Below, piece after piece: positions 5,084 through 13,899 of a stretch of 64,000 bases of DNA. The DNA is taken from assembly GCA_963707505.1 (NCBI GenBank), contig CAVPQB010000006.1, positions 480,001-544,000 on the forward strand, given 5' to 3'. Origin of the DNA: an uncultured Gemmatimonadales bacterium. Its GTDB lineage: Bacteria; Gemmatimonadota; Gemmatimonadetes; Gemmatimonadales; Gemmatimonadaceae. The translations under genes were made by a program, and so were the position numbers. The notes beneath the pieces are model-generated. The model ran no database searches. It saw nothing but the letters and a program-made list of their open reading frames with translations, and had not been told where the DNA came from. How positions within the stretch are numbered: the first letter of the stretch is position 1; every line of letters starts with the position of its first letter.

Positions 5084-5263
5084 ATGGACAAGCGCGAAAA
5101 AACAGATTCGAACGATCGTTCTAAGGCCGATTCGACAGCCAGGACGCAGAAGCCGGCGCGTCCCGATCCGCCCCGCACTACGAAGGGAAAGTGGACTGCA
5201 CCGAAATTCGGTTCCGCTGGCAGTGGCGGGGCAGAGCTGGAGCCCGGTCCGGAAAAAGATTGA
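5084..5263 (+). CDS. Small hydrophilic hypothetical protein (59 aa)
   Basis: Strong RBS GGAGGAG just before ATG; MDKREKTD...KWTAPKFGSAGSGGAELEPGPEKD. Confidence 0.6.
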   Translation: MDKREKTDSNDRSKADSTARTQKPARPDPPRTTKGKWTAPKFGSAGSGGAELEPGPEKD

Positions 5264-5371
5264 TCGTGTCGCTGAATGTGTAGTTGCATATTCTTCACGT
5301 AGCGGCGAAGTAAGTACTTCGCCGCTCAGGTCTCCCTGCAACACGATCCATCCGCGAAGGAGCGATCAGGA

Positions 5372-7167
5372 ATGGCCAGCGTGACAGCTACCAAGGCGAC
5401 ACACAATGCACCGCACCTGGCGGCGCCGGACATCAACCCGTCGTTCACCAAGGGCGTCTTCCTGGGCGAGATCCGCGAGGACCTGGTCTTTCCGTTCCCC
5501 GCGCTGTCGGCGGAGGAGAGCGAGTCGCTTCGCATGATCCTCGACTCCTTCCGCGCCTTTGCCGCGAGTAACATCGACTCGGCGAAGATCGACCACGACG
5601 GAAAGTTTCCCGACGACGTCCGACACGGATTGCACGAGCTCGGCCTGATGGGGCTCAACATTCCGGAGGCGTACGGCGGATTCGGCGCGTCGGCCAAGGT
5701 GTTCAACCGCGTCTTCGGCGAGATCGGCGGAACCGACCCGGCGCTTGCTGTCTACTTCGGTGCGCACCAGTCGATCGGGTGCAAGGGGATCACGCTCTTC
5801 GGCACCGAGGAGCAGAAGCAGCGCTGGCTGCCGCGCTGCGCGAGGGGCGAGATGGTCGCCGCGTTCTGTCTCACCGAGCCCGGCTCCGGCTCCGACGCGC
5901 AGGCGATGACGACGACCGCGATCCTCAGCGACGACGGCACGCACTACGTACTCGACGGCACGAAGATCTGGATCTCGAACGCCGGCTACGCCGGCCTGTT
6001 CACGGTCTTCGCCAAGGTGCCGGTGACGATCGACGGCAAGATGAAGCAGCGCGTCACGGCGTTCATCGTCGACGCGCACGCGCCTGGCATCACGCTCGGC
6101 CAGCCCGAGCAGAAGATGGGCATCAAGGCGTCCGACACGCGCACGGTGACGTTCGACAAGGTGCGCGTCCCCGTCGCAAACGTGCTCGGCGAGGTCGGAC
6201 AGGGATTCCAGATCGCGCTCGAGATCCTCAACTCCGGCCGGCTCGGCCTCGCTGCCGGGTCGTCGCGCGGCGCGCGCAGAATCATGACCGAAGCTGCGAG
6301 TACGCCAAGCAGCGCGAGCAGTTCGGCCGATCGATCGGCTCGTTCGAGATGATCCAGCACAAGATCGCGCTGAACGCGGCGGAGACCTACGCGGCCGACT
6401 CGGCGGGGATGCTCACGGCGGGGATGGTCGACCGCGGCGGCGATCGACTTCTCGCTCGAGACGGCGGCGTGCAAGATCTTCGCGAGCGAGCTCGCCTTCC
6501 GCGCGGCGAACGACGCGCTGCAGATCGCCGGCGGCATCGGCTACTCGAAGGAGTATCCGTACGAGCAGGCGGTGCGCGACTCGCGCATCAACCTGATCTT
6601 CGAGGGGACGAACGAGATCCTGCGCGCGCTCATCGCGCTGATGGGCTGCAGCAGCCGGGCGAGCGCCTCAAGGAGCTCGGCAAGGCGTTCAAGGATCCGC
6701 TCCACTCGATCGGCGCGATCGGCTCGTACGTCGCCGGCCGCGCGAAGCGCGAGGTGACGAAGCCGGCGTTCACGCGCGTGCATCCGGCGTTGTCCAAGGA
6801 GGCGGATCGCGTCGCGACGCTGATTCACACTCTCGCGCTCGCCGTCGAGAGCGCCGTGCTGAAGCACGGCAAGGAGATCGTCGACCGGCAGTTCCTTCAG
6901 CAGCGCATCGCCAACGCGGCGATCGACATCTACATGAGCGCCGCGGTGCTGTCGCGCACGACGTGGGAGATCGAGCGCGCCGGAGGCGTCGATGCTGTAA
7001 AACCGGAGATGGATTGTGCACGTCTTTTTCTGGCGGACCGTTATCGCCAGGTGCGCCGCTCGATCCGACGCATAGCGCGCAACCAGGACGATCGAATGAA
7101 AGCCGTCGCCGAGCGCGTGCTGGAGACCTCCGAGGCAGCGCCGCTATCGCCGTCGGATCGTGTGTAG
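5372..7167 (+). CDS. Acyl-CoA dehydrogenase (ACAD9/VLCAD-like), frameshifted
   Basis: [45 protein letters not shown]. Frame changes near 6295, 6440 and 6650. Confidence 0.92.
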
Positions 7168-7573: not shown

Positions 7574-8539
7574 TCACAAAGTGGTAACAATTCGAGCAGG
7601 ATTTGGCTTCTTCATTGCCTGTCCCCAGAGGTCGCCGACCTCCTCGAGGCGGGCGGCCATGGTGCGAACGGTGAAGTCTCTTGGGTCCAGGGCGGGTGTC
7701 AGCTCGTCCCAGTCGATGGGCGCGGATACCGTTGCCTCTGGACGGGCCCGTACGCCATAGGCGGCCGCGACGGTCTTGCCTCGGGCGTTCTGGCCGAAGT
7801 CCACGTAGATCTTCGAACGGCCCCGCTCACTTATCGATCGCACGACTGTCGCGGACTGCGGATGGGCGCCGGCAACCGCTTCGGCAATCAGGCGGGGGAC
7901 TCGCTCCGCGACGGCGTCCGTGGAGTTGGCCGGAAGCGGGATGACGATGTGGAGTCCGGTCGCACCGGATGTCTTGATGCCCGCATGAAGGCCGAGATGA
8001 TCGAGCGCTTCCTTCACCCATAGCGCGACTTCGATGACACGCGCGAACGGAGATTTGGGACCGGGATCGAGATCTATGACGGTGAAGTCGGGGTTACCCA
8101 GCGATCCCACTCGCACGTTCCACGGATTGCACTCGAAGGCGCCGATCTGGGTGCAGTAGAGAGTGGTGCCAAGCGTGCCGCCGATGATGCGTTGCTGGAC
8201 TTCTCCAGCGGCCGACTTTATCGACTCCACGTGGACGACGTCGGGTGGATTGGGCGGAGCCTTTTGCTGGAAGAAGAATTTGCCAGTGACGCCGTCGGGA
8301 AAACGCTTGAGGGACAGAGGGCGATCAACCAGCACCGTGCGGAGATACGGCCACACGCTCGTGTAATAGCGCATGACTTCGCCCTTGGTGACCCTGGGCT
8401 TCGGAAAGAAGATCTTCGCAAGGCTCGACACCTTCAACGAACTGTCGCGCCCGAGTTGAATCACTCCGTCGCCGCTGCCGCTCTCGATGGCCTGAAGTTG
8501 CTCGGTGATTTTCCGGAGCGCTGCAGCGGACGGCGTCAT
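7574..8539 (-). CDS. ligD: LigD polymerase (primase-polymerase) domain, stand-alone
   Basis: RPLSLKRFPDGV..FFFQQK, IDLDPGP, KTSGATGLHI, YVDFGQN..GKTVAAAYGVR, ATVSAPIDWDE. Confidence 0.92.
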   Translation of the reverse strand: MTPSAAALRKITEQLQAIESGSGDGVIQLGRDSSLKVSSLAKIFFPKPRVTKGEVMRYYTSVWPYLRTVLVDRPLSLKRFPDGVTGKFFFQQKAPPNPPDVVHVESIKSAAGEVQQRIIGGTLGTTLYCTQIGAFECNPWNVRVGSLGNPDFTVIDLDPGPKSPFARVIEVALWVKEALDHLGLHAGIKTSGATGLHIVIPLPANSTDAVAERVPRLIAEAVAGAHPQSATVVRSISERGRSKIYVDFGQNARGKTVAAAYGVRARPEATVSAPIDWDELTPALDPRDFTVRTMAARLEEVGDLWGQAMKKPNPARIVTTL

Positions 8540-8549
8540 GCAGCTGCGA

Positions 8550-9397
8550 TCAGCGTGATGAATGCCAGACGCGCGTGCCGTCGGCTATCTCGTCCATGGT
8601 GCGGTTTGTCGTCACCGACTTCACGTACTTCGTGGTGAGTGCCGATTCGCTTTCGGGATGCGCGTCCTCGTCGCGATGCTTGATGAGGAGCCATGATGGC
8701 TTCGATGCGCTTCTGCCAAAACCGCGCGTACGAACGAGTGCGTAGGATCCCTTGATGCGTTTTCCGTGGAAGTTGATCTTGAGCTCGCCGTGCTCGTACT
8801 GATCGTGTGCAGCCGAGTTCATGTCATCTTCAAGTGGATTCTCGATCTCGTATGTGCCGTTGTCCCACAGCATCACCGTACCGCCGCCGTACTCACCAGA
8901 CGGGATCGTTCCCTCGAAGGTGTTGTACTCGACGGGGTGATCCTCGACCTGCATCGCGAGGCGCTTCACGCTGGGATCGGCGGATGGGCCTTTTGGTACG
9001 GCCCAACTCTTCATCACTCCATCGATCTCGAGTCGGAGGTCGTAATGGAGTTGAGTAGCGGCGTGCTTCTGAATCACGAACTGGAGTCTGTTCGCCGCTG
9101 CGGAGCGTGAGGACTTTCGCGCGCGCGAAGATGCGCGCGAAGATGCGCCCGAAGGCTCCGCCGTTTTCTCGAAGTCACGTTTGCGCTGGTATTCCGTCAG
9201 CTGCTCGGCGGCGCTCAGCGCTTTCTTCGGCGCAGTTTTGCTTGCGCGCTCTTGCTTGCGCTCTTGCTTGCGGTTTTGCTGGAACTTTTGCGCGCCGTCT
9301 TCGCCGCCGTTTTGCTTGCTGCGGTCGTGGTGCGCGTTACCGACTTTCTCGCCGGTCTTGACGTCGTCTTCTTCGCGGTCTTTTTGCGAGCAGCCAT
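8550..9397 (-). CDS. ligD: LigD 3'-phosphoesterase domain protein with K/A/S/T-rich N-terminal tail (one frameshift near 9240)
   Basis: LTEYQRKRDFEKTAEPSG is in frame with FVIQKHAATQLHYDLRLE..KSWAVPKGPS..EDHP..GEYGGGTVMLWD. The nearest ATG is at 9397, in a shifted frame. Confidence 0.88.
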
Positions 9398-9718: not shown

Positions 9719-9931
9719 TCATGCTGCGCCAGCTATGTAACGCGCGATGCGCCCACATTTGACACAGCGCAGCGTCACGTGCGACTGCGGTGGTGGCGGC
9801 GTAATGTGTGGCTCGCGCTCGATGTTCGCAGCGCCGCAAGCGGGGCAGCTCAATGGATCGCCAGTGCGATCTCTGCTTACGAGTGCCAGGACCTGGGCGG
9901 GGTTGTAAGTATTCGGTCGGGGTTTGCGCAT
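9719..9931 (-). CDS. Small Zn-ribbon protein
   Basis: 70 aa with CPAC...CVKC. Confidence 0.65.
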   Translation of the reverse strand: MRKPRPNTYNPAQVLALVSRDRTGDPLSCPACGAANIEREPHITPPPPQSHVTLRCVKCGRIARYIAGAA

Positions 9932-10200: not shown

Positions 10201-11190
10201 CTAATCCCAGTCGTGTCCTCTTCTATAGACGTGGCGTTTCACGCGCCACGGCTTGGTGTCGCTGGTCTCTCGGCCCGATGCAAAGTTGGTAGGGTCGTCG
10301 ATCGAATCGCTCATGTCGCACGCCTTCGCCGACGCCTCGTCGGCCCAGTGTACTATCTCGGCCTCCACGGTCATTGGCTGCACGGGGCTTCCGAATTCGA
10401 GGCTGCCATGATGAGACAGGATCATGTGCTGGAGCTCGAGTATCTGCCCTTCGCTGCAGATCGGAGCGCCGAGCTGGGCAAGTGCGCGCTCGAGCATGAG
10501 CGCGCCCAGGACTACGTGGCCGAGTAGAAGGCCGCAGGGAGTGGTGGAGAAGCCTGTGGGGGCGACGTCGTACGCTTCGACCTTGCCGATGTCGTGCAGC
10601 AGCGCGCCGGCGAAGACCAGATCCTGGTTCGCGCGAGTGGTGCGTGCAGTGGCTCGTGCGATCGAGGCGACCTCGAAGGTGTGGAGTAGGAGGCCGCCGA
10701 GTTTGGCGTGGTGTCCTGCTGGTGATCCCGGAGTGCGCTCGAAGCGGACGCGGAATTCGTCGTTGGCGAAGAAGAGATCGACGACGCTTTTGAGGGTGCG
10801 CGATTGCATTGCTGCACGCTGTTTGTCCATCCAGTCCCAGAGCGCAGTGCAATCGCCGATTGATTCGAGGAACGACAGGACGTCGATCTGATTTTGCGGG
10901 ATGACTCTGAGCGGGGCGCTGAGTGCGAGCTGGCGTTTCGCAGATCCGTTGCGGCCGTAGAGCGCGATGTCGCCAATCGCCTGGACCACCTTGCCGCGGT
11001 CAGCGCCGTCGGCCCAGTCGAGCTTGTCGGACCAGATGGGCGATGTGTCGATTCGGCCGGAGGAATTGCCGAGTGTGAGGATTGCGAACGGGTCGCCGTT
11101 GGCGGTTTTCTTGTCCGCGCGCTCGATCACGAGGAAATCACTCTGGACCCGCTCGCGCTCCTGGAGCGCAGGGATGTTGACGGCTGGCAT
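10201..11190 (-). CDS. yhaM: YhaM/Cbf1-family OB-fold + HD 3'-5' exonuclease
   Basis: N-terminal OB fold (KTANGDPFAILTLGNSSGRI), HHAKLGGLLLHT, LLHDIGK, GHVVLG, HMILSHHGSLEFGSPVQP..EAEIVHWAD. ATG at 11190 preferred over TTG at 11226. Confidence 0.88.
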   Translation of the reverse strand: MPAVNIPALQERERVQSDFLVIERADKKTANGDPFAILTLGNSSGRIDTSPIWSDKLDWADGADRGKVVQAIGDIALYGRNGSAKRQLALSAPLRVIPQNQIDVLSFLESIGDCTALWDWMDKQRAAMQSRTLKSVVDLFFANDEFRVRFERTPGSPAGHHAKLGGLLLHTFEVASIARATARTTRANQDLVFAGALLHDIGKVEAYDVAPTGFSTTPCGLLLGHVVLGALMLERALAQLGAPICSEGQILELQHMILSHHGSLEFGSPVQPMTVEAEIVHWADEASAKACDMSDSIDDPTNFASGRETSDTKPWRVKRHVYRRGHDWD

Positions 11191-11244
11191 CGTGATGAAG
11201 GTGATGGTGCGGGGTCGATCCGGCAATAGCGGGGAGCAGCTTCC

Positions 11245-11273
11245 TTGCTTTCGGTATTTGTTCGGTATAAGCT
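11245..11273 (+). promoter_or_regulatory. sigma70-like promoter overlapped by a direct-repeat operator
   Basis: TTGCTT-N17-TAAGCT, with TTCGGTAT at 11250 and again at 11261 (11-bp period). Confidence 0.55.
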
Positions 11274-11300: not shown

Positions 11301-11918
11301 ATGCCGAAAACAGATGTCTGGTTCGATCCAAGCCGGTACGCGACAGTCGCGGAGCGGATAGCGCTGTTCTACAAGAGTCATCCAAACGGGCGGATACTGA
11401 CCGAGCTGGTGAACCGTGATACGGAGTCGGTGACGTTCAAGGCGCTGGTATTTCGGGGCGAGGGGGATACGGTGCCGGCGGCTACGGGGTGGGCGACGGA
11501 GCGTGAGGGGGACGGCGACATCAATACGGTGGCGTGTCTGGAGAACACGGAGACGTCGGCGATCGGGCGGGCGCTGGCGAATCTTGGGTTCACGGCAGCG
11601 AGAGAGCGGCCCAGTATCGAGGAGATGACGAAGGCCGGCCGAACTCGGCGAAACCGCGAAATGGCGGCTAGAAGAGCCGATACTGTCGCCATACTGGCTG
11701 AGCAATCGCCGGAGTACCGGAGCGCCTCGTCCGACTTGCTGGGTCTTCTTCAAGAAGCGCAACGTGCCGGACTGCCGAGTGACCGGGCTCAGCGGCTGCG
11801 CGACCGGCTGGAGCGAGGGCCGGCGATTCTTCCGTCGCGAATGGCTGAGCTGGAGCGGTCGCTGAGGAACTGGCTTTACCGGAAGGAGAATGTCACCGGG
11901 TCTCGTCTATCCCCATGA
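11301..11918 (+). CDS. Rad52/Sak-like single-strand annealing protein (putative)
   Basis: YATVAERIALFYKSHPNGRILTEL...ATGWATE...CLENTETSAIGRALANLGF resembles the core of phage-type Rad52-superfamily SSAPs; helical C-terminal tail. Confidence 0.65.
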   Translation: MPKTDVWFDPSRYATVAERIALFYKSHPNGRILTELVNRDTESVTFKALVFRGEGDTVPAATGWATEREGDGDINTVACLENTETSAIGRALANLGFTAARERPSIEEMTKAGRTRRNREMAARRADTVAILAEQSPEYRSASSDLLGLLQEAQRAGLPSDRAQRLRDRLERGPAILPSRMAELERSLRNWLYRKENVTGSRLSP

Positions 11919-11955
11919 ACGGCGGAACCTGAGCAGAACATGAAAGGGGGCGGAC

Positions 11956-12672
11956 GTGGAGGGTTGGCGGTTTGGGGAGCGGAGCGACGGGGAGACAGAT
12001 ATCGAGCTGCTGGCTGGGATTCGGCGGAATGAGCTGAATGCGCTACGCACCTTCGTTCTCCGGTTCGAGCCGGTGCTTCTGGACCAGGCTCGGCGACTCT
12101 CCGTAAGCCCGAGCGATCGGGGGACGATCGTAACCGGATTCCTGGACGACATCCTGGTCAAGCTCGCCGATACGAATGCCGAGTCACCGCGGTCGCTGAC
12201 TGCATTCGTGATCACGTCGTTCCGCAACTGCGTGATCGATCTGCATCGCGAGGCGACGGTGCGTGAGCGGCATGCGCGATCGGAGGAGGAGGCGATCGGC
12301 ACGGAGTACGTGGTGCGTGCCACGTGTTCCGAGTTCATGCTGCGCGCGGCGCGGGGGAACGGTGATGGCGAAGAGTCGTCATCGACTGCGGCAGCCAGAC
12401 TGGTTCATGTGCTGTTGGATGGCTGCTCATCGGACGAGCGACAGTTGCTCGTATGGAGCGCGCACCGCGTTCCGTTGCGTGAGTGCGCCGCGTGGCTCGG
12501 AATCGGTTACGACGCCGCAAAGCAGAAATTGTCGCGGCTGCGCGCGCGGCTCGTACGCGACAGCATCACGCACCTGTCCTCCCTTGCCGACCCGGATCGC
12601 AGAGAGCTCTCGCGTCTGCTGAGTCGCGCCGGCATACGAATCAATACTGAAGGCATGAGGTCCACAGCATGA
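11956..12672 (+). CDS. Atypical ECF sigma-70 factor
   Basis: Sigma2-like DIELLAGIR..ALRTFVLRFEPVL..LTAFVITSFRNCVIDLHR and sigma4 HTH PLRECAAWLGIGYDAAKQKLSRLRARL. Start uncertain. Confidence 0.75.
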   Translation: MEGWRFGERSDGETDIELLAGIRRNELNALRTFVLRFEPVLLDQARRLSVSPSDRGTIVTGFLDDILVKLADTNAESPRSLTAFVITSFRNCVIDLHREATVRERHARSEEEAIGTEYVVRATCSEFMLRAARGNGDGEESSSTAAARLVHVLLDGCSSDERQLLVWSAHRVPLRECAAWLGIGYDAAKQKLSRLRARLVRDSITHLSSLADPDRRELSRLLSRAGIRINTEGMRSTA

Positions 12673-13406
12673 AGGGAGAGAATCAGAAGCATTCATATCG
12701 TCAAGAGGTCGATGGTGGCGACGATACCAATTCATTGATCCGGCTCGTGGGCGATGCGTTGGATGCGAGCGGTGATTGCAGCGCGTACGAGAACGATCGG
12801 TTTCTCGCATGGCTCGAGCGTGAAGTGCATGGACGGAGTTCTGTTGCGGATCGGCAGTCGAGCGAGCGTGCGGCGCAACAGATCGCGAAACGCGCTCAGG
12901 CGCGCATTCGTGCGGCTCGCGTAGCTGCAGCGCTGCCGGCGCGTTCGTTCAGGGTTCGTCCGGCCGCACTGGTGGGGGACTTCGATCACGTCGCGAGAGC
13001 AGCTTCGGAGTCCGGTTGCGCGCCGTGGGTGGAATCGCTCGCGGTCGCGGCAGGTACCGGGCGTGAGATCTGGGACGAGCCGTGTGAGCAGTGGGTGGAG
13101 CTGCCAACCGGATTTGCGGGCGCGGGCAATCTCGCGCTCACCGTTACGGGCGACAGCATGACGCCGTGTCTCGAGAGCGGTGACGTGATCCTCGTCAACA
13201 CACGCAAGGCTGTGACGCGCGATTGCATGGTCGTCGCGCGGCGCGCGGAGAATGGCTACGTGGTGAAGCACGTCACGAAGTGTGGGCGGGCTGCGTTGGA
13301 GCTGTCATCGTTCAACAGCGCGTACGAGCCGTTCGTGATCGATCGAGTGCCGGGTGCTGTGGTGGGCGTGGTGGTAGCGAAGCTCGTGCGTTGTGAAGAA
13401 GCGTGA
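12669..13406 (+). CDS. S24/LexA-type autopeptidase with a novel N-terminal domain
   Basis: AVAAG scissile-site motif, VTGDSM catalytic Ser, YVVK catalytic Lys, LSSFNSAYEP. ATGA overlap with the sigma stop codon. Confidence 0.88.
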   Translation: MKGENQKHSYRQEVDGGDDTNSLIRLVGDALDASGDCSAYENDRFLAWLEREVHGRSSVADRQSSERAAQQIAKRAQARIRAARVAAALPARSFRVRPAALVGDFDHVARAASESGCAPWVESLAVAAGTGREIWDEPCEQWVELPTGFAGAGNLALTVTGDSMTPCLESGDVILVNTRKAVTRDCMVVARRAENGYVVKHVTKCGRAALELSSFNSAYEPFVIDRVPGAVVGVVVAKLVRCEEA

Positions 13407-13566
13407 GAGAGCTGGCAGAGTAGTGGTGCACGGAGAGTGGTGCAGGTATTCCGGCTGTATGTGGCGGCAGTTGCAACGCGTGGGTTCGGTAGGCGAAGTG
13501 ATTGGGTATGTGGACTGGATATGTAGTGCCTGGCGTGATGAAGAAGAATATTTGAACGGAGGGAAG

Positions 13567-13827
13567 ATGCAGCAGGACGTATCGACACAGAACAAGATCA
13601 CGAACGCAGTAGCGACTGCAATAGCCATAGCGGGGGCTATAGTTGCGTCACCGGCTGCGATGGAAAAGCTGCCGGGAACGGTCGTGACGATTCTCAAGAC
13701 TGCTACGACGCTCGGCAATACGACACAGCCGTTGATCGTAACAGTGATTGGAATAATGGTGGCTGCAATAACGCATCCACCGAGTTGGTTGAGCGGATTG
13801 GCGAGCGGAGTGCGAAGACGGTTGTGA
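13567..13827 (+). CDS. Small membrane protein (86 aa, two hydrophobic segments)
   Basis: RBS GGAGGG; AVATAIAIAGAIVA and LIVTVIGIMVAAI; basic C-terminus VRRRL. Confidence 0.6.
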   Translation: MQQDVSTQNKITNAVATAIAIAGAIVASPAAMEKLPGTVVTILKTATTLGNTTQPLIVTVIGIMVAAITHPPSWLSGLASGVRRRL

Positions 13828-13857: not shown

Positions 13858-13899
13858 AACGCCAGGCCGTTCATGAACGGCCTGGCGTTTCTGGTTTCT
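13858..13899 (+). terminator. Rho-independent terminator
   Basis: Perfect 32-bp palindrome AACGCCAGGCCGTTCA/TGAACGGCCTGGCGTT followed by a T-rich tail. Confidence 0.75.

Follow-up and report, generated by a model that had tools for sequence, protein, structure and literature searches.

A divergent ECF-type sigma factor encoded with a putative self-cleaving S24 anti-sigma factor in Gemmatimonadota

Introduction

RecA filaments switch genes on by destroying repressors. Could the same chemistry be used to set a sigma factor free? This question is raised by a three-gene locus lying within a 64,000-nucleotide stretch, hereafter the window, of the genome of an uncultured Gemmatimonadales bacterium (assembly GCA_963707505.1, contig CAVPQB010000006.1, positions 480,001 to 544,000). 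The locus encodes a Rad52-like protein (gene 1), an extracytoplasmic function (ECF)-type sigma factor and a LexA-like S24 autopeptidase. A preliminary description, made from the sequence alone, had proposed that the S24 protein is an anti-sigma factor whose self-cleavage upon DNA damage frees the sigma factor. As reported here, the three-gene module is real and conserved. We consider it probable that the sigma factor and the S24 protein form an ECF/anti-sigma pair in which autoproteolysis triggered by RecA releases sigma, a mode of release not described before, and that this pair is nested in the LexA regulon as a double-locked, positive second tier of the SOS response.

Results and Discussion

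Conservation of the module

The three co-oriented open reading frames (ORFs), the 37-bp gap between gene 1 and the sigma gene, and the ATGA overlap of the sigma and S24 genes were all confirmed from the sequence (Table 1). The named relatives of the three proteins were from Gemmatimonadota. When genome loci of this phylum were collected with an alignment of the S24 protein and the best 80 of 88 were retained, a sigma gene was found directly upstream of the S24 gene in all 73 loci with enough upstream room, and gene 1 was present in 54 of the 65 loci with room and missing from the other 11. The sigma and S24 genes overlapped in 63 of the 73 pairs, counted from the start codon nearest the sigma stop, a rule that is biased towards overlaps. 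In a second survey, starting from the sigma factor, 56 matches were obtained in 45 of 401 genomes. After exclusion of the window, genome G320 (unpublished), one contig-edge fragment and four weak matches (the two inspected being canonical ECF sigma factors), 49 were left. Forty of these had an S24 gene next to them (39 detected by script, plus L159, whose overlap hid the S24 gene), four were on contigs that ended too soon and five were orphans, i.e. a linkage in 40/45 cases. The genomes of the two surveys overlap and are kin, and the counts are not independent events. The linkage of the sigma and S24 genes, for which a neighbourhood survey had been called, is thus conserved from both sides.

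Table 1. Features of the sigma/S24 locus (positions in the window)
Feature	Position	Strand	Description
Operon promoter, housekeeping-type, putative	11245-11273	+	-35 TTGCTT 11245-11250, 17 bp, -10 TAAGCT 11268-11273
Putative LexA (SOS) operator TTCGG-N6-TTCGG	11250-11265	+	Inside promoter spacer
Gene 1 (Slr1353_N, PF27148)	11301-11918	+	205 aa; Rad52/Sak-like N-domain, residues 6-102, and helical C-domain
TGT(A/C)AC-N7-YGTC element upstream of sigma gene	11891-11908	+	Candidate autoregulatory site, atypical 7-bp spacing
Sigma gene, divergent ECF-type	11956-12672	+	238 aa; GTG start; sigma2 and sigma4, conserved linker, short helical C-terminal extension
S24 autopeptidase gene	12669-13406	+	245 aa; anti-sigma-like N-domain where a helix-turn-helix (HTH) would be
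Four-helix N-domain of S24 protein	12720-12932	+	Residues 18-88; predicted sigma-binding part
Val-Ala-Ala-Gly of S24 protein	13044-13055	+	Predicted scissile bond A128-G129
Catalytic dyad of S24 protein	13155-13268	+	S163 = 13155-13157, K200 = 13266-13268

The peptidase domain and its cleavage site

The S24 domain matched Pfam PF00717 (E 1e-14, residues 125-236), and the best structural matches of the S24 protein were LexA and lambda CI (T. maritima LexA, Z 13.1, root-mean-square deviation (rmsd) 3.6 over 126 residues). The full autoproteolysis set noticed earlier holds across the family: A128-G129, S163 and K200 were invariant in 68 of 68 phmmer homologues, the last two residues also in 60 of 60. 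The Ala-Gly bond, which aligns with the VAAG of LexA, lies 34 residues before the Ser in 58/68 homologues; distances of 34 residues from Gly to Ser and 37 from Ser to Lys were both found in 56/68, as compared with 34 and 38 in five Gemmatimonadota LexA proteins. The invariance of W135-W142 in the locus set follows from the construction of the search pattern and was not used.

LexA is cut at Ala84-Gly85 (PMC3834820, in part), and residue F203 of RecA sits in a LexA pocket made of V79, V82, F111, L113, V146 and V153 (bioRxiv 10.1101/2023.10.30.564768, in part). By offset and alignment, V82, F111, L113, V146 and V153 correspond to V126, L155, L157, V189 and Y197 of the S24 protein, V79 being ambiguous. 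These positions were hydrophobic in 68, 68, 68, 68 and 65 of the 68 homologues, and the loop Phe is kept in the RecA of the host. The conserved site, dyad and pocket suggest that the protein cleaves itself at Ala128-Gly129 under stimulation by RecA filaments on single-stranded DNA (ssDNA).

After the predicted cut, the N-terminal fragment would end with VAA, AAA or IAA in 68/68 homologues (VAA in the window copy), and such an end is predicted to act as a ClpX-type degron. A Val-Ala-Ala degron was reported in the anti-sigma factor RsdA (PMC8165232, in part), while ClpXP removes the RseA fragment, thereby freeing RpoE (PMC8103513, in part). The gene clpX is present in the host.

Identity of the sigma factor

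No Pfam family matched the window copy of the sigma protein, and its match to TIGR02937 (E 2.5e-6) was below the cut-off. When the family was aligned with 19 host ECF sigma factors by hhalign, a probability of 97.6% (E 3.7e-12) was obtained over sigma2 and sigma4. Sigma70_r4_2 was detected in 37 and Sigma70_r2 in 10 of 60 family members, and the Atlas neighbours of the protein were ECF clusters. A PDB sequence search gave CnrH as its best hit, at E 0.14. In a tree with nine canonical ECF sigma factors, the family formed a long-branch clade of its own (support 0.73), with the orphan sigmas scattered across it. The second gene therefore encodes an ECF-type sigma factor, as first described, albeit a divergent one.

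The N-terminal domain and its predicted contact with sigma

As modelled by AF2, the N-terminal part of the S24 protein forms helices at residues 18-34, 38-41, 43-56 and 59-88, the second being short. No HTH family was detected in 59 N-domains at E 0.05 (58 had no Pfam match at all, one a weak unrelated match) or in 36 S24-type distant representatives at E 0.01, in contrast to the host LexA, which matches PF01726. This is in line with the initial view of a helical N-terminus devoid of a recognisable HTH. Neither a zinc motif nor a membrane anchor was evident in the S24 protein. The N-domain had no Pfam or PDB sequence match to class I anti-sigma domains (ASDs), a type of domain that diverges strongly. 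It makes up a small family of its own, with 155 representatives among 1.84 billion proteins. Among the 150 representatives listed, 95 are at least 200 aa long, and 84 of these keep all three motifs by regular expression; several further full-length representatives keep them on inspection, and P0329 lacks them.

The complex of sigma (residues 8-232) with the S24 protein (residues 15-245) was predicted with scores of 0.82, 0.83 and 0.82, as against 0.00 for the best control, with a contact agreement of at least 89% between runs and a partner pLDDT of 81. Among solved complexes, 116 of 157 reach this score mark, as do 2 of 215 mismatched pairs, rates that are only rough for the alignments used here. 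All predicted contacts fell within S24 residues 20-84, although the peptidase domain was included in the input: helix 1 is placed against residues 165-169 of sigma (sigma4), and helix 4 against its residues 25-34 and 67-68 (sigma2). In class I anti-sigma factors, helix 1 likewise binds sigma4 and helix 4 binds regions 2.1-2.2 of sigma2 (PMC7406223, in part). The sigma-S24 contact that had been put forward is thus predicted, via the N-domain, far above controls.

A different logic, in which cleavage activates and sigma needs the N-fragment or the trimmed S24 domain as a cofactor or chaperone instead of being inhibited by it, has a precedent in UmuD, an HTH-less S24 protein activated by RecA-mediated cleavage (PMC9578287, in part). 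Two proteins from different sources, P0375 and P0381 (69% identical), carry sigma4 plus an extension fused to the N-domain and end after helix 4, an arrangement compatible with a lasting partnership; their DNA was not recovered, and a metagenome scan gave two relatives, both unfused, so that these fusions are a lead only. This logic is improbable in view of the predicted contacts, which cover sigma regions 2.1-2.2 and 4, the surfaces that class I anti-sigma factors block, and of the peptidase domain, which makes no confident contact with sigma in the model.

An SOS box in the operon promoter

The preliminary description had pointed to SOS-like boxes. A real box does exist, the direct repeat TTCGG-N6-TTCGG of Table 1; it is not of the E. 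coli or Firmicutes type. It lies between a TTG-type -35 and a -10 element in all 50 regions upstream of gene 1 (49 loci and the window), and the promoter columns are conserved across these 50 aligned regions, although the operon promoter of the window was not called in a strict sigma70 scan. Of the sigma loci that are linked to S24 and have enough room, 35 of 38 contain the box; none of the five orphan sigma loci does. GAAC-N7-GAAC, at 11925-11939, was also considered and was rejected, since it did not show up among the conserved motifs in front of the sigma genes.

The host contains 22 exact TTCGG-N6-TTCGG sites. This total is not enriched (8 to 39 sites at other spacings), and the case for a LexA box is made by the genes that the sites precede, not by their number: among them are lexA (two boxes), recA, uvrB, ruvB, gyrB, a UvrD/PcrA-family helicase gene, an imuA-like gene and an Rv2578c-like radical SAM gene. 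One further box is oriented away from gyrA. For the helicase, imuA-like and radical SAM genes, the names come from matches below curated cut-offs. Two boxes also precede lexA in five of five genomes without the module, with near-matches before recA. The box is therefore taken as an operator of LexA and not of the S24 protein, and the operon itself probably belongs to the LexA regulon, with LexA expected to bind in its promoter. In the literature searched (subscription journals being outside its scope), no LexA box was described for Gemmatimonadota; a candidate box and SOS regulon for this abundant and little-studied soil phylum are thus a by-product of this work. Candidate regulon sites in genome G000 are C2:43713; C3:426245, 488010, 746199 and 799265; C4:396677, 1068859 and 1110806; C5:17764, 17792 and 117268. 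Besides gyrB, the candidate regulon includes an unannotated 209-aa gene (G000 C5:116594-117223). The region G000:C5:16000-20000 is full of frameshifts, lexA included, probably through sequencing error.

These observations bear on an alternative in which the S24 protein acts as a common repressor, its DNA-binding domain having escaped recognition, and the direct repeat is its own operator. Most S24 proteins are repressors, the database labels of the present ones read LexA, and the fold searches barely probed the N-domain since their matches were taken up by the S24 domain (residues 115-244). Nevertheless, the box precedes lexA where the module is missing, none of the 59 N-domains matched an HTH family and the N-domain is buried against sigma in the model, which makes this the least probable of the explanations considered. 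The host keeps separate HTH-bearing LexA genes. Among them, a second LexA-like paralogue with an HTH has no box upstream (G000:C3:213040-213768; also L101-L104); the host copy keeps Ala-Gly, Ser and Lys-like residues, and three aligned relatives are without them.

The Rad52-like protein

Gene 1 belongs to Pfam family PF27148 (Slr1353_N), for which no functional paper was found in the literature searched. The top three of 48,161 chains compared with its model were RAD52/Mgm101 structures (Z 8.5-8.6, rmsd 3.0-3.6 over 90-93 residues), with double-stranded RNA-binding folds at about Z 7, a small margin of about 1.3; the best Foldseek match was also Mgm101 (E 2e-3). With RAD52 and Mgm101 as best fold matches, the case for a Rad52 fold, as suggested at the outset, is good but not overwhelming, and the product is probably a single-strand annealing protein (SSAP). 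Residues 6-102 share the fold of Rad52, Mgm101 and phage Sak, but with only 10-14% identity and an extra helical C-domain. Two stand-alone Slr1353_N genes of another family were also seen (L229 and L230), one directly before a LigD polymerase gene and the other behind a TTCGG-N6-TTCGG box.

The release trigger had been left open between RecA filaments and ssDNA bound by this protein. Gene 1 precedes sigma in most loci, the sigma factor is likewise present in 18 of 20 further genomes that have gene 1, and a solved complex between the phage SSAP Sak and the SaPI2 Stl repressor (PDB 8qe9, by its title) offers a parallel for a Rad52-like trigger. However, the 11 of 65 loci that are devoid of gene 1 keep sigma and an intact S24 protein, eight of them with the TTCGG-N6-TTCGG box directly before sigma; the RecA-pocket positions are kept; and the distant gene 1 homologues mentioned above stand alone in two genomes. 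RecA filaments are thus the likelier trigger because of the loci without gene 1, and release by the Rad52-like protein on ssDNA is highly improbable. We propose instead that the latter is a co-induced repair passenger.

A second upstream element and the search for a regulon

Upstream of sigma, the strict motif TGT(A/C)AC-N7-YGTC was found in 40 of 67 regions, as against 56 of 1980 random windows. Its TAA is often the stop codon of gene 1, yet the element is also kept where it does not overlap a coding sequence and where gene 1 is missing. The two halves look like ECF -35 and -10 elements, with a spacing 9-10 bp too short (7 bp, versus the 16-17 bp spacer of bipartite ECF promoters). A position weight matrix scan of the host gave 38 sites, versus 30-85 with column-shuffled matrices; the 15 host intergenic sites at spacing 7 were no excess over the 5-17 at other spacings; and 34 matches were counted in five genomes with the module, versus 30 in five without it. 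Extra copies of TGT(A/C)(A/G)C-N7 were seen beside the operon at L141:5402, L144:3386 and L064:7644 as possible sigma targets, the L141 copy facing a divergent gene for a trypsin-like protease (named by eye). TGTCGC-N7-CGTC occurs before one ordinary host ECF gene (G000:C4:1347208, minus strand).

With no regulon found in these scans, it may be asked if the module is a damage-triggered, toxin-antitoxin-like switch, in which binding and cleavage are the same and the freed sigma-like protein sits on RNA polymerase or DNA and stops growth. The 7-bp spacing unlike that of ECF promoters, the divergence of sigma2.2 and the patchy presence of the module (12 of 200 phylum genomes) would fit such a switch. 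On the other hand, sigma2 and sigma4 are both kept with the usual conserved positions, no relatives of the module were found on viral contigs, and orphan sigmas persist without an adjacent inhibitor, which is hard to square with a toxin; moreover, the scans would miss a regulon that is small or specific to a clade. We regard this switch as unlikely.

A more far-reaching version of the favoured ECF/anti-sigma reading is rather doubtful as a whole. It goes beyond the RecA-driven cleavage of an anti-sigma factor, which would itself add a third functional kind of RecA co-protease substrate to the repressors and UmuD, and a mode of ECF control not listed so far. In this version, sigma, once released, would read TGT(A/C)AC-N7-YGTC, a promoter more compact than those of ECF sigma factors by roughly one turn of the helix, in a late positive SOS branch together with the Rad52-like protein.

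Proposed mechanism

Taken together, the results suggest the following sequence of events. LexA would repress the operon through the direct-repeat box, recognised by comparison, in its promoter. Sigma and the S24 protein would be made together, the N-domain being predicted to hold sigma between sigma2 and sigma4 in a class I-like manner. Upon damage, RecA-ssDNA filaments would remove LexA and also stimulate the self-cut of the S24 protein at Ala128-Gly129. As this cut lies about 45 residues beyond the predicted interface, it alone would not free sigma; the exposed V/A/I-Ala-Ala end would allow ClpXP to strip off the anti-sigma fragment, as with the fragment of RseA. The freed sigma would transcribe a probably small gene set, perhaps including its own gene. 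With the damage over, newly made, uncut anti-sigma would shut sigma off. The SOS-like positive circuit first imagined thus gains support from the linkage, the N-domain and the predicted contact; since the operon appears to be also under canonical LexA, the circuit would be a second SOS tier and not a replacement.

Several points weigh against this mechanism. Everything here is computational, and the binding of the N-domain is a prediction. The complex score may reflect a learned likeness of ECF/anti-sigma pairs, the controls being unrelated proteins and none of them a non-cognate ECF. The best hit of the N-domain in a PDB sequence search was unrelated (E 0.18), with no match to solved anti-sigma factors. 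In a mirror-tree comparison, its divergence tracked that of sigma (Spearman 0.40/0.47) no better than the divergence of the peptidase domain did (0.52/0.55). Five family sigmas (L150, L191, L193, L198 and L199) have no adjacent S24 partner, the acidic motif of sigma2.2 is partly eroded in the subclade of the window, and no sigma regulon was found in the host or module-genome scans. Finally, VAAG is shared with canonical Gemmatimonadota LexA; the degron-like end may therefore be inherited and not selected, and is a fit, not proof.

Neighbouring genes

The genes ligD and yhaM, which lie next to the operon in the window and had been seen as fitting the system, were rejected as members of it: yhaM flanks 3 and ligD pieces flank 4 of 80 loci, closest relatives only. 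In the window, LigD, split into a phosphoesterase and a polymerase gene, and yhaM occupy 7574-9077 and 10201-11226; Ku is on another contig (G000:C2:50723). The start of yhaM is 24-60 bp away from the SOS box, on the opposite strand. As for other conserved neighbours, the clusters found were clade-specific only. RNA runs gave shares of 0.18 or less. In one clade, a Xre/MbcA antitoxin gene is divergent from the operon (L039:1629-2099 and seven related loci). In L027, the SOS box is followed not by gene 1 but by a degenerate S24 paralogue (5152-5979) from which Ala-Gly, Ser and Lys are all missing. In the orphan loci L150 and L193, the next gene encodes the same unannotated, secreted-looking protein, which also comes after the module in L148, while the orphan sigma of L199 is followed by a secretion ATPase-like gene. 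The S24 gene of the window is followed by a 144-aa ORF (13393-13827) of lower GC content and without family match, and by a terminator-like hairpin (13858-13889). A 70-aa zinc-ribbon ORF (window 9719-9931, minus strand) is conserved in L001, L003 and L006.

Comparison with known systems

In agreement with what the preliminary description supposed, no described ECF sigma factor regulated in this way, and no self-cleaving S24 anti-sigma factor, was found in the literature searched, subscription journals and bioRxiv supplements lying outside its scope. S24, LexA and DNA damage are absent from the main text of the ECF re-classification PMC7826278, and in the part of its supplement that was covered, S24 is named solely for a signal peptidase near ECF02. 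The ECF review PMC8999054 mentions neither RecA nor LexA. The text of PMC7406223 contains none of these either, and its supplementary table lists no Pfam domains and so provides no test. If the proposed mechanism is true, RecA chemistry wired to an anti-sigma domain would give direct positive control of a sigma factor by damage, a control route absent from the surveys of ECF regulation covered here, and a portable damage-activated transcription switch would be conceivable.

A close parallel for the position and architecture of the S24 protein is provided by anti-sigma factors of class I (RseA/RpoE, RskA/SigK, ChrR, RsdA). Their gene also directly follows that of the ECF, they have four N-terminal helices, and the contacts of their helix 1 with sigma4 and of their helix 4 with sigma2 are predicted here too; proteolysis exposing a VAA-type end for ClpXP would also be common to both. 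The S24 protein differs from them in being soluble, in matching no known ASD by sequence and in having a protease of its own; its signal would be RecA-ssDNA instead of an envelope or redox signal. SigN (ZpdN) of B. subtilis plasmid pBS32 is a sigma factor tied to the DNA-damage response. SigN is repressed by LexA and is lethal, and we know of no self-cleaving anti-sigma factor for it.

With UmuD, the module would share a double lock, i.e. LexA control of the gene and RecA-dependent cleavage of the product (PMC9578287, in part, for UmuD). The short arm and the umuC operon of UmuD have no counterpart here: the N-terminal part has 128 residues with a folded domain of about 70, the partner gene is a sigma gene in 73/73 loci and not umuC, and the proposed cut would do away with an inhibitor. 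LexA, lambda CI and PrtR have in common with the S24 protein the S24 fold, the Ala-Gly site, the Ser-Lys dyad, their spacing and the RecA-pocket positions. The S24 protein differs from them in that, by sequence, it has no HTH but a different four-helix N-domain predicted to bind sigma, and its output would be activation instead of derepression.

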